Shown here piece by piece: positions 10,738-63,344 of a stretch of 64,000 bases of DNA. The number at the start of each line of letters is the position of its first letter. Positions within the stretch are counted from its first letter, which is position 1. Both the position numbers and the translations under genes were made by a program. Source of the DNA: a virus; IMG/VR virus record IMGVR_UViG_3300045988_111426; one strand, 5' to 3'. The notes under the pieces are model-generated. The model worked only from the letters and a program-made list of their open reading frames with translations, was not told where the DNA came from and did not search any database.

Positions 10738-10823
10738 GGAAGGTACTTTCCTTGCACTCTCTTTTTCCTTGAATACTTTCACACCCAAGAACTTCATAGA
10801 GCGCAAGGAAAGTACCTCGTCTT
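10738..10823 (-). repeat. dispersed ~85-bp inverted-repeat element, copy 1 (reverse orientation)
   Basis: Arms GGAAGGTACTTTCCTTGCACTC and GAGCGCAAGGAAAGTACCTCGTCTT. Between convergent genes, next to a terminator. Confidence 0.8.
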
Positions 10824-10928
10824 CATTTTAGTTTTAAAGACAACTTTCTCATGAAAACAATCGGGTGAATGATGAAAAAGAGAACGATAAATCTTAAAAT
10901 TGTTATCATACTTTTAGGTGGAAGTTAA

Positions 10929-11489
10929 CTATTCCTTAGGATTTATAACTTCTTCGTCTTCTGTCTTTTCATCTACCACAACTGACATCTTCTCTATGAA
11001 TTCGAGAGCTATCAATTCTGCAACTTGCCAATCAGTCTTCCAAGGATGCTTTACAAATCCAGTAAAGAAGACATAAACGTAGTCATCTTTATCTGACGGT
11101 TTTACTTTTTCGACATAGTTCTTCAAGATAAAAGACGCAAGTTCACGACATTTGTCCTCTTCCACAAACTCTTGTATCTCCTTGAAGAAGTCAAGATGGA
11201 ACATAACGTCTTCGGGTTCGAGTTCTTTATCACGTGAATAGAAAACCACAGATTTCCGTGTTTCTCTGTACAACTCAAACACGTATCTTTCTTCAATATC
11301 TCCGTTTATGAGTGTGGATTTATCAATTTGTCGGTAATACTTGTTAATGTATGAGCAGATGATATCAACACCTCTATCTGAGGGGTTAAACTTCGCCATT
11401 AAGAAATCTTCAAGTCTCACACCTTTGCTTTGTATGATAGAGTTGCAACTTTTAACAACTCTATCCACGAATTTTTCTACCTTGTTCAT
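10929..11489 (-). CDS. hypothetical acidic protein
   Basis: ORF-track start 11495 is TTG. The first ATG at 11489 gives MNKVEKFVDR... Confidence 0.6.
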   Translation of the reverse strand: MNKVEKFVDRVVKSCNSIIQSKGVRLEDFLMAKFNPSDRGVDIICSYINKYYRQIDKSTLINGDIEERYVFELYRETRKSVVFYSRDKELEPEDVMFHLDFFKEIQEFVEEDKCRELASFILKNYVEKVKPSDKDDYVYVFFTGFVKHPWKTDWQVAELIALEFIEKMSVVVDEKTEDEEVINPKE

Positions 11490-11572
11490 AAGCAACGTTA
11501 ATAATGGTTAAAATACATCGAGGGCTTTGCACGTACTTTTGTTATCCGTACAAAGCCCTCGAAGAGTTGTTG

Positions 11573-12094
11573 TTATCGATATCTATAAGAACCCTTCTGG
11601 CTCTGTTGAGGATACTTGCCTTCCATTGCGGAGGTTATCTCATCAAACAGTTCCTTCATGTTCTTTGAGAAATCTATCTTACAGAAAATCCAGATCATTC
11701 CTTCTTCAGACTTATCTTCTACAAAGTCAAAGAGGTTCTTGTAGAAGTATTCTCCTATGTCTTCACGAGAGTAGTTTGATTCATCCACCATCATTCTGAA
11801 GATCGGCATCTTTTCAAGTATACGATAGAAGATTTCATCGGGATTTTTCATATCCATCTCGGTACTTCCAGCAACACCCATGAATGACTGGTTGAACTTC
11901 TCCATGAGTTCTCTCACATCATAACCATCAATCTTGTCATCTACAACTTCAGACCCTTCTCCGACTTCGAGACCATATCTCACGGAAACCCACGTGTAGA
12001 ATGCACTTCTTCTGAATTTGGTGAAGTCACCACGCATTGACAAGAACTCTTCAAGAAGTTCCGTTGCTGATTCGAAAATTCTCAGTTTTTTCAT
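11573..12094 (-). CDS. hypothetical protein
   Basis: 173-aa ORF. TAATG stop/start overlap with the upstream gene. Hairpin downstream. Confidence 0.6.
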   Translation of the reverse strand: MKKLRIFESATELLEEFLSMRGDFTKFRRSAFYTWVSVRYGLEVGEGSEVVDDKIDGYDVRELMEKFNQSFMGVAGSTEMDMKNPDEIFYRILEKMPIFRMMVDESNYSREDIGEYFYKNLFDFVEDKSEEGMIWIFCKIDFSKNMKELFDEITSAMEGKYPQQSQKGSYRYR

Positions 12095-12579
12095 TATCCT
12101 TTGTAGTATTCTTTAATGATTTCACGACAGATGTCCTTGATACCGAGATTGGGGTACTTTCTGTAGACATTAACGAAGATGTCCTTCGTTTCACGACCAT
12201 TTTCATGAGTGTAACTGAGGATATCAACGTAGTGATTGATGAAGTAGTTCACCATCTGTTGCTTGTCGATAGAAGGGTCTATTTCCAAGATGTAACTGAT
12301 ATAGCGACCAGATGAGATGACATAGACGAGATCATCATAGCTGTTGTATGTCCATTCATAAGCTTGGTTGACCTCATCGATGAGATTTCTGAAGTACTCT
12401 GTGCTTTTTTCTATTCCATCTACGATAGTGCCATCTTCCACAAAGTTCTCTTCATAGAAGAGGAGGTACTCATAAACGAGTGGTCTTGTCTCTTTACCCA
12501 TGCCGAACTTCTGTTCAAGAAGATCACCGACGTACATCCAGTCATCTTCTTGGTGTTCGAATATCTTCAGTTTATTCAT
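12094..12579 (-). CDS. hypothetical protein
   Basis: 161-aa ORF. Its N-terminus MNKLKIFE resembles that of the neighbouring gene (MKKLRIFE). Confidence 0.6.
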   Translation of the reverse strand: MNKLKIFEHQEDDWMYVGDLLEQKFGMGKETRPLVYEYLLFYEENFVEDGTIVDGIEKSTEYFRNLIDEVNQAYEWTYNSYDDLVYVISSGRYISYILEIDPSIDKQQMVNYFINHYVDILSYTHENGRETKDIFVNVYRKYPNLGIKDICREIIKEYYKG

Positions 12580-12689
12580 TATTCCGTGGTTATTATTTCT
12601 TTATGTAACTGACCGATACGAATTGGGCTACAAACCTCGAGAGAGAGATCCGTAGACCAACAACCCTTATAAAAGTAATCAACAAATCG

Positions 12690-12761
12690 TACCCCAGCCA
12701 AGAATCGAACTTGGATTGTCGGTTTAGAAGACCGATGTTCTATCCATTGAACTACTAGGGC
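12690..12761 (-). tRNA. tRNA-Arg (anticodon UCU)
   Basis: Manual cloverleaf, 72 nt. Acceptor GCCCTAG/CTGGGGT, D arm GTTC-AATGGATA-GAAC, anticodon arm TCGGT-CTTCTAA-ACCGA, T arm CCAAG-TTCGATT-CTTGG. No encoded CCA. Confidence 0.85.
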
Positions 12762-12937
12762 GTTCGGGGAGGTGAGGAAAACTCTCGGGAAGAATCTCCC
12801 TCACCTCCTTTGAGAATCAGTTTTATCTGACACTTCGTTTATCCATCGTTTTTATAATGGTGGAGAAGATGTCAGTTTCTGATGTTCCATTTCCCATTTC
12901 TCTCGTAAATCTTATGGATCTCGGAGATTCGTGGTTT

Positions 12938-14680
12938 TTATCTGTACATTGAGATATCGTAACCTCTCTCTTCAAGGAACGATATCACGAAGTTGATGTA
13001 GTTATCAACATCCTGCTCAATGAACCATTCCGATGTGGTAAATGAACAGAACGCATCAACATCCTCGTCGGTGAGATTCACGGAAAGCTGGTCATAAACG
13101 TCGGGGATTATCTGACAGATGTTGTAGATAACACTCGTTCGAAGCTGGTTTCTATCAACCCCTTCTTCTTCTTTGTTTGCATCAAGAGAAATTGAAGAAT
13201 CGACAAGGAGCTGGTTTATACCATAGCAGAACGAGAGATCTATCAGATTTTCCTGCAGATAAACTTCCGAGTTCGGTGCAATTCTGGCTTCTCTATAAAT
13301 TCTGTCGAGATCTGCAAGGAAATCTGTGTAAAGCTGAGGATCAAGATGCTCGGAAGCAAGTCTACGGAACTCTTCGGAATCAATGATTATACTTTCGTTG
13401 TACTTGAAATCACGGATTTCAGAAATTCCATAAGGATTCTTATCATCCGATGCGCACGTCGAAAGTGATCTGAAGTAGAGAATTGTGATCAGTATCACGA
13501 AATCACGATCTTTCTCCTGCTTGACAGTGTCTCCAAGTTCGTCGATGTACTCAAGGATGAACTTTCCATCTTCCCACTTCAAGATTGATCCGTTTGCAAG
13601 AGTATATTCTTTCCCGAGTTGGATCATGTCTTGAATATGTGCTTCGATGAACTCGTGGTCGTATTCAGAAGAAAGAATATCAGTGACGAGATCATTTTCC
13701 TTTGCACAATTCACGATGTCGTTACATTCGAAGACTTCCTCGAGATCCTCATCATTGATAACAAGAACCTTACGTGCTTCATCAATATGGAGCTTGATCG
13801 ACTTCTGATTTTCAAGTTTACAGAGAACGTGGTCTTCGGTGACTTCATAAACGACGATTTCGTCAAACTCTGAGAGGTACTTTGAATCAGAATCAACAAC
13901 GATGAATTTCCCAGGTTTCACGTCACTCAGACGAACGTCTCCGATGAGCTCATCATCTTCACCTTCTTCTTCCATGATTAACACGTCAGTGAACGTTTCG
14001 TGATACGTCTTGATGAGTTCTTCAACTTCTGCCTTGTTTTCAAGGGTGGATTCATTCTCATGGATGTCTACGTGAACCTCAAAGCCAGTTTCAGTATCTC
14101 CCGAGGATACAACGAAAGTGATGAAGTTGTCACCACTCGAGAGGAAATCTACGACAGGTTCGAATGCGCTTTTGTTTCGTTCGACGTACTCGTAGGTGAA
14201 GTAGAACTCGAAATCGATGTAATCAGAAAAAACATAAGTACCTTCTTCAATGTTAACAGATGAGTTTTCAAGTGATTCATTGATCTTTGCTTTATATGAT
14301 TCTTCAATGAAGGCAATACCTTGGTTTATCTTGCCCATCGAGGTTTTATCGAAAAGTCTTGTATTACCAACGACGAGGGTGTTATCTTCAACGATCTGTC
14401 GGAACGATTCATAGATCTTTGAAGAAATCTTTCTGTATCTGCGAAGATAGGTCTTGATGTCTTCGGGTTTGCTGATGTACTTCTTCTCGTTGATGATTTG
14501 GAGGGCATTCGACATGATGCCGTTTTTATCGAGTATATCTTGAACACGACGAGCGATCACAGATTCATTAACAGCGCCTGTGAGCATATCTCCTACCACT
14601 TCGTTGAGTTCTCGTTCAACATTGGGGAGATTCTCTTTTCTACAATGTTCGAAGATCTTTTGTATTTTTTCTTTAAACAT
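12938..14680 (-). CDS. hypothetical acidic protein
   Basis: 580-aa ORF with a late-like motif TGTAAATAAGAAAACG 30 nt upstream. Confidence 0.65.
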   Translation of the reverse strand: MFKEKIQKIFEHCRKENLPNVERELNEVVGDMLTGAVNESVIARRVQDILDKNGIMSNALQIINEKKYISKPEDIKTYLRRYRKISSKIYESFRQIVEDNTLVVGNTRLFDKTSMGKINQGIAFIEESYKAKINESLENSSVNIEEGTYVFSDYIDFEFYFTYEYVERNKSAFEPVVDFLSSGDNFITFVVSSGDTETGFEVHVDIHENESTLENKAEVEELIKTYHETFTDVLIMEEEGEDDELIGDVRLSDVKPGKFIVVDSDSKYLSEFDEIVVYEVTEDHVLCKLENQKSIKLHIDEARKVLVINDEDLEEVFECNDIVNCAKENDLVTDILSSEYDHEFIEAHIQDMIQLGKEYTLANGSILKWEDGKFILEYIDELGDTVKQEKDRDFVILITILYFRSLSTCASDDKNPYGISEIRDFKYNESIIIDSEEFRRLASEHLDPQLYTDFLADLDRIYREARIAPNSEVYLQENLIDLSFCYGINQLLVDSSISLDANKEEEGVDRNQLRTSVIYNICQIIPDVYDQLSVNLTDEDVDAFCSFTTSEWFIEQDVDNYINFVISFLEERGYDISMYR

Positions 14681-15697: not shown

Positions 15698-15733
15698 GGG
15701 TTTAAAAATGCTTTGTCTTATTTAAGAAATATG

Positions 15734-15814
15734 TCTTCCTTGCGCTCGAAGATATCTGAAGGTAGTTTTACCCCATCGAAACGATCTGAATACAAGGAAA
15801 GTACCTCTCTTTAA
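15734..15814 (+). repeat. inverted-repeat element, copy 2 (left arm degenerate)
   Basis: TCTTCCTTGCGCTCGAAGATATCTGA ... CAAGGAAAGTACCTCTCTTTAA. Next to the terminator hairpin at 15821-15850. Confidence 0.7.
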
Positions 15815-15820
15815 ACAGAA

Positions 15821-15850
15821 AGAGGGTGACATCTTTCAATATCACCCTCT
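15821..15850. terminator. bidirectional terminator hairpin
   Basis: AGAGGGTGA..TCACCCTCT with T-rich runs on both sides. Confidence 0.6.
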
Positions 15851-15858
15851 TTCTTTTG

Positions 15859-16161: not shown

Positions 16162-17035
16162 ACTTTGAGCAGTGTACTTCCATCATAGGATCAACACCAA
16201 CCTTGAGTGTCTTAGTGACATGAGTAGCGACCTTGTACTTGTCGACTGACCAACGCTTGATTTCTTCGAGTTTACGCTTGATGTACTTACCACTGTCGTC
16301 GATATCTCTCCAATCCTTGGTAATGTACATGATGATCGTAAGATCAGCAAGGTCGTAATAACCACCTTCACCTCTCTGCTTCTTGATTTCTGCTTCCTTG
16401 ATGTATTGGAAGATCTTCTCCGTCACACCAACAGTAGGCACGTAGATTTCAAGAGGAGATTCAAATTTCTCGTGATTAATAACGAATGATCTCTTTTCAT
16501 CATCATAGAACTTCATTATAGAATCGGGGATGCTGTAATAACCAAGATTCCCCTTTTCGATTTCTACCGAGATTTCCTCACCACAGCTGGGGCATGGAGA
16601 CTTGTGAGAAATCGTGGATTGGCGACCATCGGCAAGGAAAGTTCTCTCACGAACAGCAAAGAAGACAAAGATCTTGTCGAATTCGGAAAGATCTCTGTAA
16701 CTTACAGGATTTCCGTTCTTTGAGATTTTCACACAAACGTTGAAGAGCGTGGACATCTTGTCTTGAATGTCAAAGAAATCTTCATCGTTGATTGATGAGA
16801 AATGCTTGACTTCTTGAACATTTGCAGATTTTACAAGAACTTGAGTGCCCTTGTCATAGAAGAAAGACCTTGATGGTAATTCATCGGCAGGAATAGGCAC
16901 GAAGTTATGCTTCGTCACAAACTCTGATTCAAGCTGTTCTCTATCCATAGGTTTGAATCCACCAAAAGGTGTTCCTTCTGTCTCTCGGAGGAGGTTTTCT
17001 TTTGCTTTTTCTTCTAATTCGTCGTAGCTACTCAT
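16052..17035 (-). CDS. hypothetical Zn-ribbon protein
   Basis: 327-aa ORF. Two CxxC pairs (SPCPSCGEE and HCSKCGKE). GATATAAGAAAGG motif about 22 nt upstream of the ATG. Confidence 0.7.
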   Translation of the reverse strand: MSSYDELEEKAKENLLRETEGTPFGGFKPMDREQLESEFVTKHNFVPIPADELPSRSFFYDKGTQVLVKSANVQEVKHFSSINDEDFFDIQDKMSTLFNVCVKISKNGNPVSYRDLSEFDKIFVFFAVRERTFLADGRQSTISHKSPCPSCGEEISVEIEKGNLGYYSIPDSIMKFYDDEKRSFVINHEKFESPLEIYVPTVGVTEKIFQYIKEAEIKKQRGEGGYYDLADLTIIMYITKDWRDIDDSGKYIKRKLEEIKRWSVDKYKVATHVTKTLKVGVDPMMEVHCSKCGKENKVPVRFPEWSTLLSDESIIGELFGDSSQVDL

Positions 17036-26692: not shown

Positions 26693-26755
26693 ATCTTAAG
26701 AGATCTTTTTTAGTGTTTTGTACGATTCTTATCATAAGAACATACTTTCCTTATC

Positions 26756-26815
26756 ACAGAGAGGTACTTTCCTTGCGCTCTGATAGGTCTTGTGGGGTGA
26801 AAATAGCACAAATAA
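26756..26815 (+). repeat. inverted-repeat element, copy 3 (truncated, left arm only)
   Basis: GAGAGGTACTTTCCTTGCGCTCTGA...GTGGGGTGAAAATAGCACAAATAAG. Lacks the right arm. Next to a terminator. Confidence 0.65.
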
Positions 26816-26817
26816 GC

Positions 26818-26850
26818 GATGACCTCAAGAGAGAGGTTCTCTTGAGGTCA
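26818..26850 (-). terminator. terminator hairpin
   Basis: ATGACCTCAAGAGA..TCTCTTGAGGTCAT downstream of gene 26883-27278. Confidence 0.55.
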
Positions 26851-26882
26851 TTATAGATTAAAGATTGTGTTATTGGAATCTG

Positions 26883-30326: not shown

Positions 30327-30412
30327 TGTCATGACAAAGTTGTCATATTCTGTCATCTTTGTCATACTTCGTGTCATGTGTCTGTCATGTCATTCGTGTC
30401 ATATTTTGTCAT
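30327..30412 (+). promoter_or_regulatory. array of nine direct TGTCAT repeats in a divergent intergenic region
   Basis: TGTCAT starts at 30327, 30341, 30351, 30360, 30372, 30383, 30388, 30397 and 30407, so spacing is mostly 9-12 bp. The first copy forms the palindrome TGTCATGACA. Confidence 0.6.
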
Positions 30413-35903: not shown

Positions 35904-35911
35904 AGAAAAAG

Positions 35912-39947: not shown

Positions 39948-40511
39948 ATGACTTCGGCAAGAATAGATGGGCGACAATTCACCACAAGCTCAAAACAGCG
40001 TGAACTTTTCGCATTGTGCTTGAAAGTTATCAAGGGTGGAATGAGACTTCAAGATGTTCCACAGAAGAAGTACTATGGTGTGAAAAACATCGTCGAGAGA
40101 TACTATCAAGGAAAGATTTCTATGGAGCATATTCTCGAAAAGTCAACATCCGCAATAGTTCGAGGTGATAATGGTAATCAGACGATCATCACGAATGGTT
40201 ACAAGATTGAGAAGAATCCAAACTATGAAGATGAAGGGGGGGAGACGATTTTCTACATGTACCTCCCAAAAAGAGCGATCGACGAAATCCCGAGGATCTT
40301 CAACTATGGTATCCGATCGATGAATTATGGATCGATGACAGAGACGAACGAGTTCTGTAGATTCCAAGACAACGTTGTGGTTGTGATATCGACAAACATA
40401 AAGGTGAGAAAGAAGATAGACGAATTCAAAAGGAAGGCGGTCTATTATGGTCTTGATGTTGTAAGACCTCAAGATATCAGAGAAATACAATACAAACTGG
40501 AAAATGTCTAA
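39948..40511 (+). CDS. hypothetical protein
   Basis: 187-aa ORF between baseplate genes. Confidence 0.55.
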   Translation: MTSARIDGRQFTTSSKQRELFALCLKVIKGGMRLQDVPQKKYYGVKNIVERYYQGKISMEHILEKSTSAIVRGDNGNQTIITNGYKIEKNPNYEDEGGETIFYMYLPKRAIDEIPRIFNYGIRSMNYGSMTETNEFCRFQDNVVVVISTNIKVRKKIDEFKRKAVYYGLDVVRPQDIREIQYKLENV

Positions 40512-41310: not shown

Positions 41311-41336
41311 AAAGGGAAACTAAGAAATAAGAAAAA

Positions 41337-41385
41337 CCGATTGGGGTCATCTGATGCTATTTTCAGATGACCCCAATCGGTTTTC
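41337..41385. terminator. bidirectional terminator hairpin between convergent genes
   Basis: 18-bp stem CCGATTGGGGTCATCTGA/TCAGATGACCCCAATCGG followed by TTTTC. Confidence 0.7.
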
Positions 41386-41400: not shown

Positions 41401-41493
41401 TAAAGACGAGGTACTTTCCTTGAACTTGGAGGTACTCGAAGCTATGAAAACAACACCAAACTTTTCAGAGTGCAAGGAAAGTGCCTTCCTTGA
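41401..41493 (+). repeat. inverted-repeat element, copy 5
   Basis: TAAAGACGAGGTACTTTCCTTGAAC ... GAGTGCAAGGAAAGTGCCTTCCTTGA. Ends 6 nt from the stop of the truncated terminase ORF. Confidence 0.8.
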
Positions 41494-41499
41494 AGTCGG

Positions 41500-41961
41500 T
41501 TAACCATAGATCATCGTGTAAAGCTTTGATCTTAATCTGTTGATGAATGTTTGAGGGAAGAGGTCAGAAATCTTGAAGTTTCCGTGTTGCCCATTTATGA
41601 CAGATCCCCAACCTTTACTTTTCCCAATCTGACGTGAAGCAAGGATAACGTTGTGCCTGTAATACTGAAGCTGTTGGATGATTCTTGTCTGATATGGTCT
41701 CAGTTTGATATGCTTGATACCATCATCAGTTTTTACCTTGGCCAGATTTTCTGAGAAGTACAAGACAGAATCTTGAACCTTTGCAAGTTCAAGAAGTTCA
41801 TCCTCTGTGTATGAGAAGTTGATACGTGGTTTCCTCAAGCGAACATCACCACTATAAAACGGATTCTTCTTGGGAAGTACACCCTTGTCGTTGAATTCCT
41901 GTATGAGCTTCTCTACACGTTCTGTAGACCACAGCATGTTCTCTACAACCTTCTTCGCCAT
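41500..41961 (-). CDS. terminase large subunit, N-terminal fragment ending just after Walker A
   Basis: 153 aa. LYFSENLAKVKTDDGIKHIKLRPYQTRIIQQLQYYRHNVILASRQIGKS parallels T4 gp17 VYFAETY..IKVQLRDYQRDML..NLSRQLGKT. The sequence diverges right after GKS and stops 37 codons later. Confidence 0.7.
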   Translation of the reverse strand: MAKKVVENMLWSTERVEKLIQEFNDKGVLPKKNPFYSGDVRLRKPRINFSYTEDELLELAKVQDSVLYFSENLAKVKTDDGIKHIKLRPYQTRIIQQLQYYRHNVILASRQIGKSKGWGSVINGQHGNFKISDLFPQTFINRLRSKLYTMIYG

Positions 41962-53975: not shown

Positions 53976-54011
53976 ATGTGGGGAGAAGATGTTCGAAACT
54001 TCTCCCCACAT
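53976..54011 (+). terminator. terminator hairpin
   Basis: ATGTGGGGAGAAG..CTTCTCCCCACAT after gene 52297-53946. Confidence 0.6.
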
Positions 54012-54094
54012 CTGTATTCAAACATTGACCTTCCAGTCATATTCAGAAAAATTGACTGGAAAAATGACTGGAAATGTGTTATTAAACTATCACA

Positions 54095-54179
54095 TTAAAG
54101 GAAGGTACTTTCCTTGCACTCGAAATAGCCCGAGAATATGAAAATAGCGGAAAATGGATCAGAGTTCAAGGAAAGTACC
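54095..54179 (+). repeat. inverted-repeat element, copy 6 (locus unit A)
   Basis: TTAAAGGAAGGTACTTTCCTTGCACTC..GAATATGAAAATAGCGGA..GAGTTCAAGGAAAGTACC. Confidence 0.85.
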
Positions 54180-54353
54180 AAGGAAAGCCAAGGAGAGGTA
54201 TTCCGTGAGACTATGGGTCATCGTCCGAAGGCAATAGACCATTTCGAAGGATTATGGAAGACTATGGAAGACTATGAAAGACAATGACGATTGTTGAAAG
54301 ACAACGGAGGATTATCAAAGGATTATGAAGAGACAATAGTTCTGATTTGTTAA

Positions 54354-54438
54354 TTAAGACGAGGTACTTTCCTTGCGCTCTGAGATATTCAAGAATATGA
54401 AAATAGCGGAGACTATACTCGAGTTCAAGGAAAGTACC
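54354..54438 (+). repeat. inverted-repeat element, copy 7 (locus unit B)
   Basis: TTAAGACGAGGTACTTTCCTTGCGCTC..GAATATGAAAATAGCGGA..GAGTTCAAGGAAAGTACC. Confidence 0.85.
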
Positions 54439-54646
54439 TTCCTGTAATCAGGAGACATATTCTCGAGGATTATGGGTTTCTGTCGGAAGACAATCAAAGA
54501 CAATGACTGATTATGGAAAGACAATGATGATCATCAAAGGACTATTGAAAGACAATGACTAATCATCGAATACTATGAACGATAATCGGAAGACAATGAA
54601 GGATTATCAAAGGATTATTGAAAGAAAATGGCTAAAAATGGTCGAA

Positions 54647-54731
54647 TTAAAGAGAGGTACTTTCCTTGTCCTCGAAGACATTCAGTGGGGTAGAAATAGC
54701 GTCAAATAGATCAGAGCGCAAGGAAAGTACC
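54647..54731 (+). repeat. inverted-repeat element, copy 8 (locus unit C)
   Basis: TTAAAGAGAGGTACTTTCCTTGTCCTC..GTAGAAATAGCGTC..GAGCGCAAGGAAAGTACC. Confidence 0.85.
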
Positions 54732-55409
54732 TTCCTGTAATCAGAAGAGGTATTCTGTTGAATGGTGGGTTTCTGTCGGAAGACAATGACTATTGTCAAT
54801 GACTATGGAAAGACAATCGACTATGGAAAGACAATAGAGGATCGTGAAAAGATCATCAAAGACTTTGAAAGACAATCAAAGACAATAGCTGATTCTTTGA
54901 AGACTTTGGAATCTATTGATTAATCATTGAAAAGATCATCACTTCTTTGAAAATTTCTCTAAAGATTGATTGATAGACTGATGACTTTTGTCTGAATCAT
55001 AGATTTCCGCCCCTTTAATGATAATCGTTTTGAAGACAAAAGATGATCGTTAAATGGTTTTATTGTGGACGAGGATTGTTGAAAATCAAAATCAGTCTTT
55101 TTTGAATCCCAGAATAGACCAGAACAATTGAAAGAGACCATTGATGATTCCCGAGATATTTATGATTCTTGGAAAGACTATGATTCTTGGAAAGACAATG
55201 GAGGATTATTCAAAGAGAGATTGAAATTGAAAGATAATCATTCCAAGAACGGAGATTTGTTAAGAATTGTTAACTGATTTTGAATGGAAAGTTGAAAATT
55301 GGAGGATTCATCAGACAGATAATCATACAGATAATCAGATTATCCTCGGAATTTGCCGACAAACCGTGCGTATACACGAAACTTTAAAAAAACGCGCGAA
55401 TTCCCGTGT

Positions 55410-55438
55410 ATACCCGTATACGCATGCGGTATTTTTTT
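55410..55438 (+). terminator. terminator-like hairpin plus T7 run
   Basis: ATACCCG..CGGTAT stem followed by TTTTTTT. Confidence 0.35.
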
Positions 55439-55562
55439 CCAGTTTTATCGTAAATACAAAGTATTTACAACTGGTTTGGGGTCAGCCTTGGCACGATAGT
55501 GCCAAGCCAGGCTGCCCCAAACCATACATTGAGCGCAGAAACATGTCGTGCGCATGTTTTTA
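55439..55562 (+). ncRNA. candidate small structured RNA in the GC-rich core of the repeat locus
   Basis: Three consecutive hairpins: 55439-55474 (CCAGTT..GTAAATAC/GTATTTAC..AACTGG), 55473-55523 (about 21 bp, GC-rich, GGTTTGGGG..CCCCAAACC), and 55539-55559 (AAACATG/CATGTTT) followed by a T-run. No ATG-initiated ORF. Confidence 0.35.
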
Positions 55563-55799
55563 AATTTCCAGTTTAAACCAAAAGTACCAGGTGCGTGTTA
55601 GGGAACTTTAAAAAAACGCATGCGTGAAACTCCAAAAAAAGCGCACGCACGCAAAAAACTTTAAAAAAGACCTGTGTCAAATCCCCCGAACAGATTAACA
55701 CCTTTTAACACCTTAAAACCGATATTCTCTTTCCAAGATATTCCTCCCATAAGCCACAGAGACCATAACCCTCGAAAATATGTCTCCTTGGCTTTCCTT

Positions 55800-55884
55800 G
55801 GTACTTTCCTTGAACTCGAGTATAGTCTCCGCTATTTTCATATTCTCAGATATCTCAGAGCGCAAGGAAAGTACCTTCCTTTAA
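55800..55884 (-). repeat. inverted-repeat element, copy 9 (locus unit D, reverse)
   Basis: The reverse complement reads TTAAAGGAAGGTACTTTCCTTGCGCTC..GAATATGAAAATAGCGGA..GAGTTCAAGGAAAGTACC. Confidence 0.85.
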
Positions 55885-56087
55885 TTCAATTATTTTCGAT
55901 CATTGTCTCGATAGTCATTGATGATCTTCCATTGTCCTTCATTATTGTCATAGTCTTTTGATAATCCTTGGAAATAACCATTGTTTTCGGAAGATGATTC
56001 ATAAACCTCAAAAATGTTCAGAATCGATATTCCCATGTGAACCGAGGAGACCATAATAATCAGAAAATACTCTCCTTGGCTTTCCTT
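55885..56087 (-). repeat. same short-repeat family in reverse orientation (CATTGTC cores)
   Basis: CATTGTCTCG, CATTGTCCTT, TATTGTCATAG and CCATTGTTTTC lie between units D and E. Confidence 0.6.
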
Positions 56088-56172
56088 GGTACTTTCCTTG
56101 CGCTCTGATCTATTTTCCGCTATTTTCATATTCTTGAACCTCTCAGAGCGCAAGGAAAGTACCTCTCTTTAA
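56088..56172 (-). repeat. inverted-repeat element, copy 10 (locus unit E, reverse)
   Basis: The reverse complement reads TTAAAGAGAGGTACTTTCCTTGCGCTC..GAATATGAAAATAGCGGA..GAGCGCAAGGAAAGTACC. Confidence 0.85.
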
Positions 56173-56239
56173 AGCGTATCAATTGATAATACACTTTAAC
56201 ACATTTCTTCAATCTTCAATCATCCCTCAAACAACAATC

Positions 56240-56306
56240 CGCCAATCTCCGATGAATTGGTTCTTTTTGATAAAAAAGAACCAATTCATCGGAGATTGGC
56301 GTTTTT
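56240..56306 (+). terminator. exceptionally long hairpin plus T-run at the right edge of the repeat locus
   Basis: CGCCAATCTCCGATGAATTGGTTCTTTTT-GA-TAAAAAAGAACCAATTCATCGGAGATTGGCG (about 30 bp with one mismatch) followed by TTTTT. Confidence 0.6.
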
Positions 56307-57230: not shown

Positions 57231-57243
57231 CTCAAGAAAAAAT

Positions 57244-58248
57244 ATGAACAATCTGGAAAAGGGTTCAATCTCAAATCTCATCATGCATAACACAGCTCCC
57301 TCTTGTTATGATGTTTTTGTTGCAAACGATGAGGTGGAAATTGGTGAAGGGAAAACTGTCTCTCGAAAAGCAGTTTTCCATGTGGAGACACCACGTTCAT
57401 TGGGTGATGAAAATGAACTGTCTATCGACTGCACAGAAGAGACCATGACTGGGAATGAGGATGTCTATTATAAGACCTATCTGTATGAAGGTGGTAAGTA
57501 CATTGATAGGTCAGAGAAACTACATGATGATGTTTATGAATGTGTTTCCTATGCTATGCGAAAGATCTTTGAGAGATGCAAGGAACACAGTGATAAATTC
57601 ACCCCAGAGTTTGACTTCGAAATCCAATATGCAAGTTATGATAACGACGACGATTGTGTCCGCTGGATCTCTGCTGTAACACCTTGTGATGAAAGCACAA
57701 TCCTTGGATATGTCAATGTAGGATATAGGACTGTTGCACACCGCATCTGCAATGCATACCAAACAATCAATAGCCACTTCGATAAATCAACACAAGATTG
57801 CGTTACTCCACATATCGGTTTATATGAATCCATCATATTTTATAGAAGGCTCTATGATGGAAAATGGGGAGATTACACAGATTCAGACAGACCTAAAGTG
57901 AACCTCAATGCATATCTGAAGAAGTCCACCATCACTGATGATATAATCTTAACATGTTACGGATGTCTAGGGATTGGCGGAAAGATAAAAGATTTTCATC
58001 ATAATCTAGGCGAAGATCATAACAATGCTGTTTCCGAAGCATGTAATATCATCACCCATCATATCCTCAATGAATACTTCTTCTCATCCCCTCCAAGGAT
58101 GATTATCAGATCAATCGAGAAGTATAAACACATGGTGACTTTTGAAGGTGTGGATATTGGTTATTTCTTGTTTGCAAGAAGAGAAGATGCGATCACCTTC
58201 TTGACCTTCTTCGGGACGGCGGTTAGAAATCAGTTAGAGAAACAATAA
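57244..58248 (+). CDS. hypothetical Cys/His-rich protein
   Basis: The ATG at 57244 (MNNLEKGS...) gives 334 aa. The track start overlaps tRNA-Met. Confidence 0.65.
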   Translation: MNNLEKGSISNLIMHNTAPSCYDVFVANDEVEIGEGKTVSRKAVFHVETPRSLGDENELSIDCTEETMTGNEDVYYKTYLYEGGKYIDRSEKLHDDVYECVSYAMRKIFERCKEHSDKFTPEFDFEIQYASYDNDDDCVRWISAVTPCDESTILGYVNVGYRTVAHRICNAYQTINSHFDKSTQDCVTPHIGLYESIIFYRRLYDGKWGDYTDSDRPKVNLNAYLKKSTITDDIILTCYGCLGIGGKIKDFHHNLGEDHNNAVSEACNIITHHILNEYFFSSPPRMIIRSIEKYKHMVTFEGVDIGYFLFARREDAITFLTFFGTAVRNQLEKQ

Positions 58249-58261
58249 AAATACCAACAAA

Positions 58262-58477
58262 ATGTTTCGATTAATTCTCATAGACAAAGGCAGGGCACCT
58301 CTTCAAGTTATAAAGTGCCTAATGGATCATCTTCGTATTTCACTTAGCTTCGCTATGGAACTTGTTCGTCAGAATGAACCAGTTCTTTATGAAACGGAAG
58401 ATAAGCAGGACATCCTTGATCTTGAGGAAAAGTTGAAGAAGTTTTGCGCTGTTACAAAAATCGTAAACGACAATTAG
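58262..58477 (+). CDS. miniprotein resembling the ribosomal protein L7/L12 C-terminal domain
   Basis: 71 aa. FRLILIDKGRAPLQVIKCLMDHLRISLSFAMELVRQNEPVLYETEDKQDILDLEEKLKKFCAVTKIV parallels the L12 CTD [66 protein letters not shown]. Confidence 0.45.
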   Translation: MFRLILIDKGRAPLQVIKCLMDHLRISLSFAMELVRQNEPVLYETEDKQDILDLEEKLKKFCAVTKIVNDN

Positions 58478-58484
58478 ACGAGTT

Positions 58485-58709
58485 ATGCTTGAAGAATATG
58501 AACAGAGGAGACGGAAAGCTCTGAAGAGCTATGAAAGGTTCAAAGAGGTCACTTTGAAGCAACTCGATTTCATCCAGTCTCTGGAATTTGAGAAGTTGTC
58601 ACCAGATGAGAAGTTCTTTCAGCAGACTAAGTACGAATACATGCACGGCTATCTTCGCTGTCTGAGACTGGAATTCGATAGGATCTTAGCAGAAGAAAAA
58701 GATCTGTAA
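58485..58709 (+). CDS. hypothetical helical miniprotein
   Basis: 74-aa ORF that ends 15 nt before the tnpB ATG. Confidence 0.5.
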   Translation: MLEEYEQRRRKALKSYERFKEVTLKQLDFIQSLEFEKLSPDEKFFQQTKYEYMHGYLRCLRLEFDRILAEEKDL

Positions 58710-58724
58710 TGGTTGATCATAAGC

Positions 58725-59867
58725 ATGTTAAGAGCAATTAAAGTAAGGTTATATCCAAACAAAGCGCAGGAACAAGAACTTAACAAGGTTCTTGGTGCTT
58801 ATCGTTTTGTCTATAACCACATGCTCGATAAAAGAAAGACTGCTTATGAAACTGACAAGACAAGTCTAAGCGAAAACGATCTATCAAAGTACTTCCATGG
58901 AACATTGCTGAAAGATGAACAACATGTTTGGATAAAAGAACAGAACACAAAGGTGATGAACCAAGCAATCAAACAGATGGTCGGTGCTTATCAAAACTTC
59001 TTCAATCATCATAAAGGATTTCCAAAGTTTAAATCAAAGAAAGACAAACAATCGGCATTGTTTCCTCGTAATGCCATTTCAAAGAGGAACACTTTCGAAA
59101 CGAAGCACATAACTTTAATCACTTCCCTTAAGAACCTCAGATTCCGTTGTTCTGACTTATATCACAAACGCTTGCAGAAATACAAGGACAACATAAGAAG
59201 CGCAACTCTCTCGAAAACCAAGAGTGGGAATTTCTTCTTGTCGATTCTTGTAGACATTCCCGAAGCGGAATTTGTGAAATTCGGAAAGACCAACAAACAA
59301 GTTGGTATTGACCTTGGCGTGAAAGATTTCGTTATAACCTCCGATGAAACTGTGTTTGAAAACAAACACTTCTTCAAGAAGGAGGAAAAGAAGATGATCA
59401 AACTTCAACGTCAATTATCCAGAAAGGTCAAAGGTTCAAACAATAGGAACAAACAGAGAATCAGACTTGCAAAAGTGATTGCGAATATAACGAACAAGAA
59501 AGAGAACTACATCCACTCAGTTGTGAACGAGATATTGAAATCATACGACACGGTGTTCATGGAAGACTTGAATATTAAAGGGATGCTTGGAAATCGTTAT
59601 CTTGCGAATGCTATCCAAGAGTCTGGATTTTATCGGTTCAAGTCGATATTGCAATATAAGGCTCTTATGAATGATAAGCGAGTTGTTCTTATCAATAGGT
59701 TCTATCCAAGTTCAAAGACTTGTTCGTGTTGTGGTTACAAGAAGAAAGACTTGAAACTCGGTGATAGGTTTTGGACTTGTCCCGAATGTGGTGAATATCA
59801 CGACAGAGATATAAACGCTTCGAAGAACATTCTTTTTGAAGGACAAAGAAAACTTCGAACTGGCTAA
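58725..59867 (+). CDS. tnpB: TnpB (OrfB_IS605-type RuvC nuclease), no associated TnpA
   Basis: MLRAIKVRLYPNKAQEQELNKVLGAYRFVYNHML is a typical TnpB N-terminus. RuvC-I GIDLGVKDF, RuvC-II VFMEDLNIKGM, Zn ribbon CSCCG..CPECG, RuvC-III HDRDINASKNI. Confidence 0.85.
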   Translation: MLRAIKVRLYPNKAQEQELNKVLGAYRFVYNHMLDKRKTAYETDKTSLSENDLSKYFHGTLLKDEQHVWIKEQNTKVMNQAIKQMVGAYQNFFNHHKGFPKFKSKKDKQSALFPRNAISKRNTFETKHITLITSLKNLRFRCSDLYHKRLQKYKDNIRSATLSKTKSGNFFLSILVDIPEAEFVKFGKTNKQVGIDLGVKDFVITSDETVFENKHFFKKEEKKMIKLQRQLSRKVKGSNNRNKQRIRLAKVIANITNKKENYIHSVVNEILKSYDTVFMEDLNIKGMLGNRYLANAIQESGFYRFKSILQYKALMNDKRVVLINRFYPSSKTCSCCGYKKKDLKLGDRFWTCPECGEYHDRDINASKNILFEGQRKLRTG

Positions 59868-60140
59868 GATATAAAAAAGATGAATAGGTGTTCGTAACAC
59901 CGAATTTACGCTTGCGGACTGCTCTCTTATGGATGACCGAACCTCGTGTTCCTAAAAAGTAATGGTAGGTTGAAACAAGAAGTGAGAACTGGATAAAACG
60001 CAGATTTTTCACATACGATAAGGCTTTTACACATCCAAGGGAAGATTTGTCGATAGGTATGAAGCTTGTAAAATAGCCAAAGAATCTGGCCAAATAGAGG
60101 TCGATGATGAAAATATGGTTCTTTACTCGGAAGACCTCTA
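59800..60140 (+). ncRNA. candidate omega (re)RNA scaffold plus guide of TnpB; boundaries not determined
   Basis: A 289-nt ORF-free tail follows tnpB. Hairpins GGTGTTCGTAACACC at 59887-59901 and AGAGGTC..GACCTCT at 60096-60139. By analogy, omega RNAs span the tnpB 3' end and the downstream region. Confidence 0.3.
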
Positions 60141-60156
60141 CTGAATCACAAGATCA

Positions 60157-60624
60157 ATGATTAGTCCTACAGAGTTTTACGAAGGTCTTGATAAAGGTGA
60201 ATATAAGACGAATATCAAGATATATCAATCATCACAGACATTGGACTACAATGGAAGTCCAATGTTTGAGGTTGAAATAACAACAACAAAAACACGGATG
60301 CCTATCAAAGACGATCCTTACGATAGTCCCTATGAGTTCAAGCTCACGATAAAAAGGAATCAACGAGAAATCAACGATTTTATCACACATGTAAAGTTGG
60401 TTAGCTTACGTTGGAAATCATCTGAAGAGGTTGATAAAACCGTTGCTAAATTGGAACGGCTTATAAACGATTTCACTAATGCTTGCTATGGCTATCAAAA
60501 TGGAGAGTACAACTCAAGATCGGACTATTACGCATATCTAACATTGCGAGGTTGTTATGAATATCTAAGCTCGTACTTTGATGATTTACAATATGTCTAC
60601 GATGCTTATATTGTACGGACTTAA
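60157..60624 (+). CDS. hypothetical protein
   Basis: 155-aa ORF between tnpB and the methyltransferase. Confidence 0.6.
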   Translation: MISPTEFYEGLDKGEYKTNIKIYQSSQTLDYNGSPMFEVEITTTKTRMPIKDDPYDSPYEFKLTIKRNQREINDFITHVKLVSLRWKSSEEVDKTVAKLERLINDFTNACYGYQNGEYNSRSDYYAYLTLRGCYEYLSSYFDDLQYVYDAYIVRT

Positions 60625-60681
60625 TAAGTCTGTCACACACAAATCCCTAAACAGAAGAATAGTTAAAACTTGAATCGAAAC

Positions 60682-61635
60682 ATGGTAAGGAAGGCAACTA
60701 ATAAGTTACTTCAGAAGGCTAAAAAGCAGAAGAACGACGAGTTCTATACGCAACTTATTGACATCGAGAGAGAATTGCGACATTATGAAAGCTATTTTAA
60801 GGGGAAAGTTGTGTATTGCAATTGTGATGATCCTTTGACGGGTAACTTTTTCAGATACTTCGTTTCTAACTTCAAAGCATTAGGACTTAAGAAGGTGATC
60901 GCATCTTGTTATAAGGAAAACGGTCATGGCTTTTTCTTTGAATACACAGGGACAGAACTTGCTGATGCAGATCCAAAGACCGCCAATGTTGTCTACTTCA
61001 AGGGCGATGGCGACTTTCGTAGCCAAGAAAGTATTGCCTTACTGGAACAATCTGACATAGTTGTTACCAATCCACCATTTTCGTTGTTCCGTGAGTATGT
61101 TGCACAATTAACAAGATATGATAAGCTCTTTCTCATTATTGGGAATATCAACGCCATCACTTATAAAGAGATTTTCAAGCTCATTCAAGATGGTAAGGTA
61201 TGGCTTGGTGTGAATATTGCGAGAGGAATTTCTGGGTTTGTTGTACCAGCTCATTATGAACTCTACGGAACAGAAACAAGGATAGACGAATCTGGTAACA
61301 GGGTTGTATCTACCAACAATTGTCTGTGGCTTACGAATTTGGACAATTTTACGCATCGTAAAGAGATCTCGCTTACCAAAAGCTACTATGGGCACGAACA
61401 TGAATATCCCAAATACGACAATTATGATGGTATAAATGTTGATAAGACTAAGAACATACCACGAGATTACAGTGGTTATATGGGAGTTCCGATAACATTC
61501 TTACATAAATTCGATCCACGCCAATTTGAGATTGTGGGTTCCAGAAAGGGAAACGATGGGAAATGTTTATCTGTGAATGGGAAATGTTCTTATTTTAGGA
61601 TAATCATCAAGAAGAAACAAACTACGACTAAATGA
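60682..61635 (+). CDS. N6-adenine DNA methyltransferase, EcoRI-methylase-like family
   Basis: The ATG at 60682 gives 317 aa. NDEFYTQLIDIERELRHYESYFKGKVVYCNCDDP plus catalytic IVVTNPPFSLFREYV (NPPF). No cognate nuclease recognised nearby. Confidence 0.75.
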   Translation: MVRKATNKLLQKAKKQKNDEFYTQLIDIERELRHYESYFKGKVVYCNCDDPLTGNFFRYFVSNFKALGLKKVIASCYKENGHGFFFEYTGTELADADPKTANVVYFKGDGDFRSQESIALLEQSDIVVTNPPFSLFREYVAQLTRYDKLFLIIGNINAITYKEIFKLIQDGKVWLGVNIARGISGFVVPAHYELYGTETRIDESGNRVVSTNNCLWLTNLDNFTHRKEISLTKSYYGHEHEYPKYDNYDGINVDKTKNIPRDYSGYMGVPITFLHKFDPRQFEIVGSRKGNDGKCLSVNGKCSYFRIIIKKKQTTTK

Positions 61636-61709
61636 TCTGATCAATAGAGATCAATGATGATAAAAAGAAGGAAACGAAACCGATAGGAAGATCAAATAAT
61701 AAGACTTAT

Positions 61710-61779: not shown

Positions 61780-61796
61780 CAAAAATAAAAAGGAAC

Positions 61797-62241: not shown

Positions 62242-62326
62242 GGAGAGATGGCAGAGCGGTCTATCGCATCAGTCTTGAAAACTGAAGGTCGGAAACGATC
62301 CGTGGGTTCGAATCCCACTCTCTCCT
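62242..62326 (+). tRNA. tRNA-Ser (anticodon UGA), class II
   Basis: 85 nt. Acceptor GGAGAGA/TCTCTCC, anticodon arm TCAGT-CTTGAAA-ACTGA, long variable arm AGGTCGGAAACGATCC, T arm GTGGG-TTCGAAT-CCCAC. Confidence 0.85.
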
Positions 62327-62771
62327 CAAAAATGACTATTGGATTCACAGCAAGAAGATATCGCAATTGCTCCTAAAAATTACGTAGTCCACTGGGAAGT
62401 CATCAAAACAAAAGCGTTCTTTTAAAGAATTCTCAATGTCGAGATTTATAGACATACAGCAAACATAATTATTCATAACTGGCTCATAGACCGTCTGTAG
62501 TAAAGATTTCGACGAAAACATTAAGAAAACATCCGTTTAGATAGCAGATTTCCTGCATTGAAAATCTAAGGTTAATGGCTTCGTGCTCCTGTCGGCACTA
62601 TCTGCAGTCATCTAAACGGTTATCAATCATAGTCTCCGATTTGCAGATATTCAGCAATGAATCTTCATTATCGTTTGTCTACGTGTTAAACGTCTGCAGT
62701 ATAATCGGAATCCATAAAGTGATGACACTATACTTCGCCTCCTACAATAGGTTCACCACTTTTTGTTGTTA

Positions 62772-62815
62772 GAAGGGCTGTCGTTCGATTCAGAGAACGA
62801 CAGCCCTTCGTCATT
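62772..62815 (+). terminator. intrinsic terminator closing the tRNA/noncoding stretch
   Basis: 15-bp stem GAAGGGCTGTCGTTC/GAACGACAGCCCTTC followed by GTCATTTTC. Confidence 0.7.
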
Positions 62816-62852
62816 TTCTAAAGATAACTAAAAAGATATCACAACACATACG

Positions 62853-63155
62853 ATGAAGAAGACTTTAAAGCGTAAGATGCTTACCGATGGAGAACTGTCT
62901 ATCCGATTTGAACGAGATAGGTACTTGGATACTGAGAAAGTTGCTCGTGGAAATGGCTATAAGATGTTCAAGTACCGTGGTCGATTTTTAGCAGAAGTTC
63001 GTGGGAAGAATCCTCGTTATGTCCAAATCTTTAAACATAAACACGTCTCTATGGGAAGATGTAACTGTTCGCTATGTGAATGGCGAAGAAAACGTACCAT
63101 TCAATATAAGGCGAAAAAGATGAACGAGAAGACAGAAGCATTTGGAGAATGGTGA
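62853..63155 (+). CDS. hypothetical basic protein
   Basis: 100-aa ORF, Lys/Arg-rich, with a CNCSLC motif. Terminator downstream. Confidence 0.55.
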   Translation: MKKTLKRKMLTDGELSIRFERDRYLDTEKVARGNGYKMFKYRGRFLAEVRGKNPRYVQIFKHKHVSMGRCNCSLCEWRRKRTIQYKAKKMNEKTEAFGEW

Positions 63156-63180
63156 TTTGATCGCTATCTTTGAAAAACGA

Positions 63181-63218
63181 AAGGCGACAACTCGATTTAG
63201 AGAGTTGTCGCCTTTTCT
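63181..63218. terminator. bidirectional terminator hairpin
   Basis: AAGGCGACAACTC..GAGTTGTCGCCTT flanked by T-rich runs. Confidence 0.65.
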
Positions 63219-63250
63219 GCATATTGGGATTAAAATCAAGATTTGTTGAA

Positions 63251-63344
63251 TTAAAGAGAGGTACTTTCCTTGTCCTCGAAGATATCTGAGAATATGAAAA
63301 TAGCGGAAACTATACTCAAGCTCAAGGAAAGTACCTCTCTTTAA
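63251..63344 (+). repeat. inverted-repeat element, copy 11 (most symmetric copy)
   Basis: TTAAAGAGAGGTACTTTCCTTG ... GAATATGAAAATAGCGGA ... CAAGGAAAGTACCTCTCTTTAA, with 22-bp perfect terminal inverted repeats. Confidence 0.85.

Follow-up and report, generated by a model that had tools for sequence, protein, structure and literature searches.

The 64,000-nucleotide stretch of viral DNA analysed here (IMG/VR record IMGVR_UViG_3300045988_111426; hereafter the window) is a portion of a phage genome of ~150 kb. It carries a dispersed family of non-coding intergenic elements of ~100 bp, based on paired inverted 13-bp cores (GGTACTTTCCTTG / CAAGGAAAGTACC) that flank a conserved centre (ATGAAAATAGCGG). 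The window also encodes 5 tRNA genes, a NAD-dependent ligase, Rad50/SbcD-like proteins, a helicase and baseplate-like proteins, as well as a 2340-amino-acid protein similar to a large protein without functional annotation in Bacteroides phages, e.g. Hankyphage p00. Its relatives encode a T4-type portal (Portal_T4) and a T4_Y16D domain, and the phage belongs to an uncultured T4-like lineage. Because start codons in the window are preceded by A-rich tracts without Shine-Dalgarno sequences, and judging from the best database neighbours, the host is probably a member of the Bacteroidota. We rated the element as a lineage-specific intergenic repeat or operator family of this uncultured phage clade.

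Anatomy and constraint of the element

The 22-nt arm of the element matched the window 12 times with at most 3 mismatches, against 0.00 matches expected by chance. The 13-nt core GGTACTTTCCTTG matched 22 times with at most 2 mismatches (1.2 expected), and 20 of these 22 matches fell inside eleven elements, eight of them complete (copies A and E-K) and three one-armed or degenerate (B, C and D). A preliminary description of this DNA had placed eleven copies, and all of its positions were right: solitary copies at 10.7, 15.7, 26.7, 35.8, 41.4 and 63.3 kb, and five more at 54.1-56.2 kb. It had also called some solitary copies truncated or degenerate, which was true for three (15730-15814, 26734-26818 and 35840-35911), had seen a terminator hairpin beside every solitary copy, where a strong hairpin was indeed found 1-36 nt away each time, and had described the placement as mostly convergent, in agreement with 4 of 6 solitary copies at convergent junctions. 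The central 18-mer that it quoted was exact in five copies only, the remaining ones holding variants. Its terminal inverted repeats of 20-22 bp did not hold for the family as a whole: the 13-bp core alone was universally complementary, in 98% of cells, and a 22-bp repeat was present in a minority of copies only.

With the orientation called forward set by the central motif, the consensus reads TTAAAG(RR)A-GGTACTTTCCTTG-..CTC..-(variable ~12)-(GA)ATATGAAAATAGCGG-(variable ~12)-..AGAG..-CAAGGAAAGTACC-tail. From start to start, the two cores were 63 nt apart in 68 of 73 complete copies, with rare variants of 59-65 nt; if the 13-bp core is taken as a stem, the loop measures 50 nt. The right-hand tail occurred in three main types, TTCCTGTAATCA (n=33), AAGGAAAGCCAA (n=19) and TCTCTTTAATCA (n=16), and only the last completes the 22-bp inverted repeat. 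A tail of the AAGGAAAGCC type holds the 9-nt half-site CAAGGAAAG in three direct repeats, and the half-site is reused both directly (CAAGGAAAGTACCAAGGAAAGCCAAGGAGAG) and in inverted arrangement. Behind the tail, the cluster copies and copy K share an invariant AGGAGAS..ATTY block.

An entropy profile of 91 distinct copies from the window and its relatives was near zero in both cores, in the adjoining CTC/GAG and in the central ~13 nt, high in two patches of 10-15 nt between cores and centre, and moderate in the outer flanks. Pairing was seen in 50% of cells for the outer 9 nt and in 58% for the inner 10 nt, which is the level reached with shuffled partners. In alignments of seven orthologous genomes, arm and central motif were unchanged beside hypervariable patches. 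The one-armed form of copies C and D was preserved in all six relatives, with the adjoining 10-15-nt patches different in almost every genome; some other sites retained the opposite arm only. As in operator families, many copies of one conserved sequence were retained whatever the structural context.

The patches themselves were compared in the orthologous alignments of copy D (A4, 35862-35878) and copy C (A5, 26776-26794). In A4, arm and motif were invariant in six relatives beside a hypervariable 15-nt patch, and in both alignments the arm-to-centre patches differed in nearly all relatives, where the flanking proteins were 86-98% identical. Since patch variants of A4 and A5 (CGCTCTGA, CACTCGAA and TCCTCGAAG) recur in other copies, point mutation alone is a less likely source of this variation than shuffling by gene conversion. 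Exchange between copies was also seen in the L010 orthologue of copy K, a chimera of L002-type and window-type interiors (L numbers designate the loci of relatives).

A small ATG-containing open reading frame (ORF) within the element (GAATATGAAAATAGCGG) was rejected as a coding unit. The frame is open in many copies but broken in copy A, its register relative to the gene that follows varies, being in frame, stopped or out of frame in L030, L028 and L020, and when the window was compared with L023 by inspection, most changes in the 'peptide' downstream were non-synonymous. Treating the arms as self-palindromic operators (AAGGAAGGTACTTTCCTT) held for some flank types and failed in a distant clade with the flank CCGGAGG. 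Helical phasing was dropped because the centre-to-centre distance is 59, 63 or 70 bp depending on how the site is defined.

Copies in the window and in related phages

Copies were present at 4 of the 6 convergent and 0 of the 6 divergent junctions of the window, while copies B and C lay between co-directional genes, directly after a terminator. Relative to the adjacent terminator, the element was forward in three cases and reverse in three. The outer cluster copies were 68-84 nt from a strong hairpin; all eight element loci lay less than 90 nt from such a hairpin, and these make up 8 of the 16 strong intergenic hairpins in the window.

Copy A (10733-10825, minus strand) is complete and occupies a convergent junction, with cores at 10742-10754 and 10804-10816 that are offset by 62 nt. 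A terminator-like hairpin with a 14-bp stem (10677-10716) lies 17 nt away, and orthologues of the copy are present in L014, L027, L031, L032, L034 and L037. Copy E (41401-41494, plus strand), likewise complete and at a convergent junction, has cores at 41410-41422 and 41473-41485, the right one with 1 mismatch, around the centre AGCTATGAAAACAACACC. Its neighbour at 17 nt is a bidirectional terminator-like hairpin with a 22-bp stem (41333-41384), and its orthologues were found in L003, L005, L007, L011 and L036. The sole window copy with a perfect 22-bp terminal inverted repeat is the complete copy K (63251-63344, plus strand), also at a convergent junction, 36 nt from a bidirectional terminator-like hairpin with a 14-bp stem (63180-63215). 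The stop codon of a gene for a TnsA-like nuclease lies 17 nt away from the copy, and the same neighbourhood is found in the 80% relative L104.

Copy B (15730-15814, minus strand) combines a perfect 22-nt left arm and the centre GGGGTAAAACTACC with a degenerate right arm (CAAGGAAGACATA), and abuts a terminator-like hairpin with a 13-bp stem (15817-15854). On the gene strand, the order is terminator, element, promoter-like motif TAAATAAG and ATG at 15697. Copy C (26734-26818, plus strand), which is antisense to its flanking genes and is kept one-armed in the six relatives of alignment A5, consists of a partial extra arm, a left arm at 26754-26775 and the centre GTGAAAATAGCAC; a hairpin with a 14-bp stem that begins with CAAGAGA (26819-26851) takes the place of its right arm. 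In copy D (35840-35911, plus strand), the left arm (35840-35861) is followed by the centre GAATAGTTTCATAGCGGAAAG, and the right arm is replaced by a hairpin with a 20-bp stem that begins with CAAGAGAG (35912-35954). The TAA of its left arm doubles as the stop codon of gene 34335-35843. The hairpins at the right-arm position of C and D, starting with CAAGAGAG, look like remodelled arms.

The remaining five copies, all complete, occupy a non-coding locus of 2.3 kb (53976-56301) between strong hairpins at 53976-54011 and 56240-56301. Three forward copies with arrays of short repeats are followed by a structured core and two reverse copies that face it. On the plus strand lie copy F (54095-54197), whose tail CAAGGAAAGTACCAAGGAAAGCCAAGGAGAG represents three direct half-sites, copy G (54354-54447), with the tail TTCCTGTAA followed by AGGAGA, and copy H (54647-54740), with the central variant GGGGTAGAAATAGCG. 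Copies I (55782-55884) and J (56070-56172) lie on the minus strand and are directed at the cluster core; the former has the three-half-site tail, and in the latter the stem extends inward to about 21 bp. Tandem Repeats Finder located arrays of ~10-nt repeats (AAAGACAAT, GGATTAT and GGAAAGAC) at 54240-55200 on the plus strand, downstream of copies F-H. All nine plus-strand AAAGACAAT sites of the 64-kb window fell within this interval, and the repeats were strictly strand-specific. Purines predominate on the plus strand of the arrays, and GGAAAGAC is similar to a degenerate half-site of the arms.

The conserved structured core (55395-55610, plus strand) comprises hairpins and invariant blocks, and is common to a second cluster in relatives, which adjoins a family-B DNA polymerase segment. 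Sequence identity among relatives was 65-80% in the cluster versus about 90% in its flanks. Among 37 predicted pairs of the core, 6 were changed on both sides, mostly between the two paralogous clusters, whose core hairpins thereby differ in a compensatory manner, and the core could be a non-coding RNA of a new type or an origin-type structure. A search of the cluster against Rfam returned no family, only sub-threshold microRNA-like matches to the 56240-56301 hairpin. This hairpin, with a perfect 29-bp stem and a 4-nt loop, is the longest in the window, forms the boundary of the cluster on the tRNA side and gave these sub-threshold matches on both strands. Core hairpins include GUAAAUAC-AAA-GUAUUUAC and UGGUUUGGGG...CCCCAAACCA, and the invariant blocks include ACAACTGGTTTGG and CCAAACCATACATTG. 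Paralogues of the core lie at 12566-12782 of L023, 7753-7960 of L008 and 3256-3472 of L035. In L023, an ORF with family-B DNA polymerase motifs (NSIYG and YADTDS; 12990-13418) begins directly after the second cluster, and no polymerase sequence precedes it in the same frame; the polymerase gene of L023 may be split.

A scan of IMG/VR identified the element in 38 loci, from five complete genomes of 145-151 kb plus fragments, and a metagenome scan recovered the same clade again. These relatives are 85-93% identical to the window in their genes. The preliminary description would have been refuted by a family confined to the window; instead, copies occupy orthologous sites in six or more related phage genomes of ~145-151 kb, and the scoring of presence or absence that it proposed found all six solitary sites filled in every covering relative (85-93% DNA identity). 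The copy number of the cluster varied from 3 to 5 among relatives. In L104, with 80% identity in the neighbouring protein, the same arms, a 3+1 cluster and a K-like copy beside the TnsA-like gene were found. The site of copy B was filled in relatives at 81% (L094) and 47% (L095).

The most divergent copies came from a distant phage in sample SRR19906134, which shares 47% (L095) and 61% (L081) identity with the window in neighbouring proteins. L095 carries copies at the orthologous B site (8876-8950), where the interior is fully diverged though site and core are kept, and upstream of the portal gene (16238-16313). A half copy lies upstream of a gene for a conserved membrane protein in this phage, and a further arm is located where contig L081 ends. 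Its core is GGTA(C/T)(T/C)TTCCTTG within the arms GGTAYYTTCCTTG, and its central motif ATGGACTTGAAATAC occupies an unchanged internal position (the distant-clade centre is given as TGAAATAC). The outer flank differed by clade, being AGAGAGG/CCTCTCT in the window and CCGGAGG/CCTCCGG in the SRR19906134 phage, with both arms altered together. No analogous repeats were found in relatives with 41-43% identity (L078, L079 and L103), a search of IMG/VR for further distant-clade copies gave unrelated chance matches only, and none of the GenBank phages in the collection matched the element or the neighbouring protein. The spacer upstream of the portal gene holds a copy in L095 and none in the window clade (L023, 1138-1513). 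Because this spacer differs between L095 and L023, sites of the element are gained or lost, only over long time scales; the element is old, with slow turnover.

Readings of the element

From the anatomy, constraint pattern, placement and age of the element, together with the absence of selection for pairing, we infer a composite recognition site on duplex DNA for a sequence-specific, probably phage-encoded protein, to which we assign a probability of roughly 0.4; solitary copies would carry boundary complexes and the clusters would be high-density centres. Among the three roles listed in the preliminary description (a mobile element, a protein-binding site and an RNA module), the putative protein site fits best, because arms and centre are invariant irrespective of pairing, partner or orientation, with free spacers of fixed length between them. 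The reuse of half-sites, the joint change of the flanks between clades and the deep persistence at the same spacer point in the same direction; a joint change of both arms is expected if the specificity of the protein co-evolves with its site. Such a site would have three parts, namely the inverted 13-bp arms on half-site CAAGGAAAG at 63-nt offset, the centre (ATGAAAATAGCGG, or TGAAATAC in the distant clade) and the clade-specific outer flank. A protein occupying both arms, and probably also touching or bending the centre, would form a fixed nucleoprotein complex in the spacers between transcription units. This complex may serve as a symmetric boundary or roadblock that lends strength to the terminators beside it, or it may regulate the unit next to it. 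Assembly would reach high density in both non-coding clusters, where five copies and dozens of weaker GGAAAGAC-type repeats surround a structured core; origin-like, partition-like and regulatory-hub roles are candidates for these centres.

Several points weigh against a protein site. Among about 50 window proteins scanned with Pfam and PHROGs, no helix-turn-helix, ParB or Rep-type match lay near the elements. The chimeric interiors indicate concerted evolution by gene conversion, which could keep the arms uniform without a protein reader. The distances between arm centres (59-70 bp, depending on the definition of the site) are not whole helical turns and offer no phasing argument, and a flank change in both arms is equally expected for a hairpin or for transposon ends. 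In addition, the strand-specific repeats and central hairpins suggest that the cluster is transcribed, with a possible role there at the level of RNA or as a promoter. The whole case, moreover, is built from sequence. A further extension of the protein-site reading, which we regard as very doubtful, is a phage-encoded chromosome-organising system in which one protein would bind a dozen or more tripartite sites at unit ends and nucleate at the two clusters. Convergent or tandem units might be shielded by it against read-through, or against a tracking activator of late transcription as in T4, and the clusters might in addition be centres of replication-origin or partition-like type. Such a system would correspond, in a virus, to global regulators of the KorB/ParB type or to boundary elements.

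The inverted arms around a small non-coding body would also suit a non-autonomous selfish repeat, either a miniature inverted-repeat transposable element (MITE) or a doublet of repetitive extragenic palindromic (REP) units, a REPIN, that spread once into the spacers near terminators and is now fixed and homogenised by recombination. The arms would be former transposase-binding ends, and those spacers the sole insertion-tolerant DNA in a packed phage genome. Many copies are degenerate or one-armed, the number of cluster copies differs among relatives, chimeric interiors attest exchange between copies, the portal-upstream site is occupied in L095 and not in L023, the outer flanks of both arms changed jointly, and genes of mobile elements (TnpB and the TnsA-like nuclease) lie nearby. 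The architecture agrees with the MITE with TTAA ends that the preliminary description had considered, but every mobility test that was run came out negative. No target-site duplication was detected, with no direct repeat of at least 3 nt common to more than 3 of 8 copies at 16 boundary offsets, and no empty site was found at the six solitary positions in 6-7 genomes with 85-93% identity. Scanning of 185,579 bacterial and archaeal genomes recovered 0 complete copies and three matches to the 20-mer arm, which is the chance level. No arm-flanked transposase gene was found in the window, and the ends of the TnpB unit are unrelated. Paralogues are alike almost solely in arms and centre, contrary to what a recent burst would leave; even relics that could no longer transpose have an invariant arm and motif, and the B site is still filled at 47% protein identity in the neighbouring gene. 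A selfish origin is possible and present-day mobility is not supported; as an account of the element, we consider a selfish repeat unlikely. Read as RNA, the same arms would pair into a long hairpin in the 3' untranslated region that acts as a terminator, an RNase III site or a stabiliser. The elements do sit at gene 3' ends beside terminators, the predicted hairpins are very stable (-33 to -46 kcal/mol; lowest z-score, -7.6), 98% of the core is paired in 38 diverse copies, and the outer flank is altered on both sides in the distant clade. However, either strand folds equally well (-30 to -46 kcal/mol), and the invariant core offers 0 pairs with both sides changed, hence no evidence of covariation. 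The covariation score of the 38 copies was 0.093 versus a shuffled mean of 0.117, with 499 of 500 shuffles at or above the observed value, and when right halves were re-dealt among the 91 copies, the same number of pairs was obtained (inner part, z about 0; outer part, z = -3.4). The compensatory changes for which the preliminary description had proposed a check were absent from the core, and left and right halves assort independently. The inner extension had 111 G-U versus 155 A-C mismatches, no excess of G-U; one-armed copies that are unable to fold in this way are conserved, orientation varies with respect to transcription, the hairpin is not followed by a U-tract, and in Rfam no family matched the element, only five tRNAs reaching the gathering score in the window. 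Because pairing is at shuffle level without an excess of G-U, one-armed copies are conserved and orientation is free, pairing outside the core is not under selection, and 'inverted repeat' does not imply 'hairpin'. The earlier option of an RNA processing, termination or stability module thus keeps the 3'-end location in its favour, against the missing covariation, the conserved one-armed copies and the orientation flips, and is highly improbable.

A regulated promoter cassette, similar to the promoter-early stem-loop (PeSL) cassettes of T4-type phages, would place a phage-specific promoter element at the centre and activator or repressor sites in the arms. Transcription would run in the forward direction and converge on the core in clusters; co-directional sites would supply additional transcripts of the genes downstream, and convergent junctions would supply short or antisense RNAs. 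Accordingly placed are the co-directional sites at which the element comes after a terminator and before a gene (copy B, the L030-type site and the L095 portal site), and the cluster copies, which face a centre that holds hairpins and then T-runs. The repeats downstream of the cluster copies are strictly strand-specific with a conserved AGGAGAS..ATTY block behind each copy, and copies A, C and D lead in the forward direction into a hairpin, which would yield RNAs of roughly 50-100 nt. The centre also weakly resembles a promoter-like motif of this phage (GGTAAATAACGAAAT, see below), the best copies scoring 3-4.5 bits, above the 99.9th percentile; yet it reaches at most 4.5 bits versus at least 12 bits at 11 bona fide GGTAAATAACGAAAT sites, and no Bacteroidota-type TTTG / TAnnTTTG signal was found in it. 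None of the six divergent regions, where promoters must lie, has a copy, versus four of the six convergent ones. Copy C and the copy at the L095 B site face the opposite way with respect to the gene downstream, and the distance from the element to the promoter motif or ATG varies. In the two L095 copies, whose layout is identical (terminator, element, TAAATAA motif, gene), the central 15-mer lies on opposite strands. A promoter cassette is, on this balance, quite unlikely; part of the probability is given to none of these readings.

In architecture, the element is closest to the BIME-1/RIP elements of E. coli, by analogy, and in logic it is closest to dispersed operator families. BIME-1/RIP consists of two inverted REP units flanking a site for integration host factor (IHF), and is bound by IHF, gyrase and Pol I without the need for a perfect hairpin. 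Like BIME-1/RIP and REPINs, the phage element is ~100 bp long and extragenic, lies at 3' ends and convergent junctions beside terminators, and has inverted units at near-fixed spacing with a conserved centre. It shares no sequence similarity with them and has no GTAG-type 5' tetranucleotide; no match to Y1_Tnp, the transposase domain of the REP-associated tyrosine transposase (RAYT) type, was found among the window proteins, and the copies number a dozen or more per genome versus hundreds in a bacterial chromosome. The dispersed operators include the stoperators of mycobacteriophage L5 (read by gp71), the C1 operators of P1 and the OB sites of RK2 KorB, which also serve in partition. In each case, one protein encoded by the genetic element itself reads the sites and controls many transcription units. 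The likeness lies in many conserved sites of at least 13 bp across the replicon, mostly in short intergenic spaces and kept as sequence rather than structure. Those systems use single short operators, in contrast to the 100-bp tripartite modules described here, and L5 stoperators are fixed in orientation relative to transcription, whereas the phage element is not.

Correia elements of Neisseria have TA duplications, insertion polymorphism and hundreds of near-identical host copies; they and other prokaryotic MITEs can affect transcription and RNA processing. Terminal inverted repeats, a body of ~50-100 bp, a central protein-binding site (an IHF site in their case; putative here) and intergenic placement are shared features. 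In contrast, the phage element shows no duplication, no polymorphism among close relatives and no host copies, and its paralogues are alike only in arms and centre. The PeSL is a recombining, repeated regulatory cassette, and the likeness extends to repeated intergenic placement in a T4-like phage (Portal_T4, T4_Y16D and gp46/47-like SbcCD), stem-loops, mosaic regions and recombination between copies. The phage element, however, contains nothing recognisable as an early promoter consensus, shows no enrichment at the 5' ends of genes, and near copy K the breakpoints lie at the terminator and not within the element. Thus, the element falls short of the defining tests of a MITE (duplication and polymorphism), a REPIN (RAYT gene, as judged within the window, and GTAG), a structured RNA (covariation and orientation) and a PeSL (promoter consensus).

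Large uncultured phages of the gut or rumen type are nearly opaque in their regulation, and the family described here is a sharply defined, deeply conserved cis-element marking the boundaries of transcription units, which can be used directly as bait for the protein that putatively reads it. Should this protein be a global regulator or a boundary factor, it would expose how transcription is partitioned in a T4-like phage of a non-model host, and might locate origins. Should the family instead prove to be a fossil transposon, it would give a rare documented example of repeats that became fixed and are maintained within a virulent-type phage genome; MITEs are rare in viruses, at 0.01% of viral sequences (PMC11602168).

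Neighbouring genes and other motifs

The TnsA-like gene beside copy K (63361-63837, minus strand) encodes 158 amino acids with a TnsA-like endonuclease N-terminal PD-(D/E)XK domain, and its pairing with copy K is kept in L104. The TnpB gene (58725-59867, plus strand) has OrfB_IS605, Cas12f1-like TNB and HTH_OrfB_IS605 domains, and the TnpB of L104 lies in a different neighbourhood. The region at 57.2-61.8 kb is mosaic among relatives, as L033 is without 58459-60656, L019 is without 57231-58274, and L002 and L012 are without 60146-61672, which holds a 155-amino-acid ORF and an EcoRI-like adenine methylase. A link between the element and the TnpB unit with its guide RNA was rejected, the ends and downstream sequence of that unit being unrelated to the arms. 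A host-derived MITE or insertion sequence was likewise rejected after two scans of bacterial and archaeal genomes were negative; an apparent double match in a Sphingobacteriales metagenome-assembled genome (L041) was a coincidence in coding sequence.

The genes flanking copy E had PHROG matches to the baseplate hub/lysozyme (40504-41310, plus strand) and to the terminase large subunit (41500-41961, minus strand). The latter covers only the N-terminal part (153 amino acids), and this terminase gene may be short or split. For the two proteins of ~1250 amino acids and the 598-amino-acid neighbour of the cluster, nothing useful was obtained from PDB, Pfam or PHROGs.

The motif GGTAAATAACGAAAT, with the core TAAATAA, lies 23-44 nt (mostly 23-28 nt) upstream of about 11 ATGs, mostly of structural-type genes. 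These ATGs are at 7455, 9972, 14680, 15697, 20848, 24637, 28704, 32195, 39474 and 50716 on the minus strand and at 34335 on the plus strand. The motif is also conserved in the 47% relative L095, and it looks like a phage-specific, T4-late-like promoter. Beyond the training sites, its best match (12.1 bits; 63348-63372, minus strand) abuts copy K. Membership of the element centre in the GGTAAATAACGAAAT class was excluded by a position weight matrix. The host Bacteroidota promoter (TTTG-N19-21-TAnnTTTG) had no convincing match in the element in either orientation, and in the phage it was seen at only 2 of 57 gene starts.

Repeats of a different kind occur at 30330-30412, where an array of about 11 TGTCAT units lies directly upstream of the ATG at 30413. 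A second TGTCAT array (L017, 9380-9445) is directly followed by a copy of the element, and these arrays may represent another operator array.

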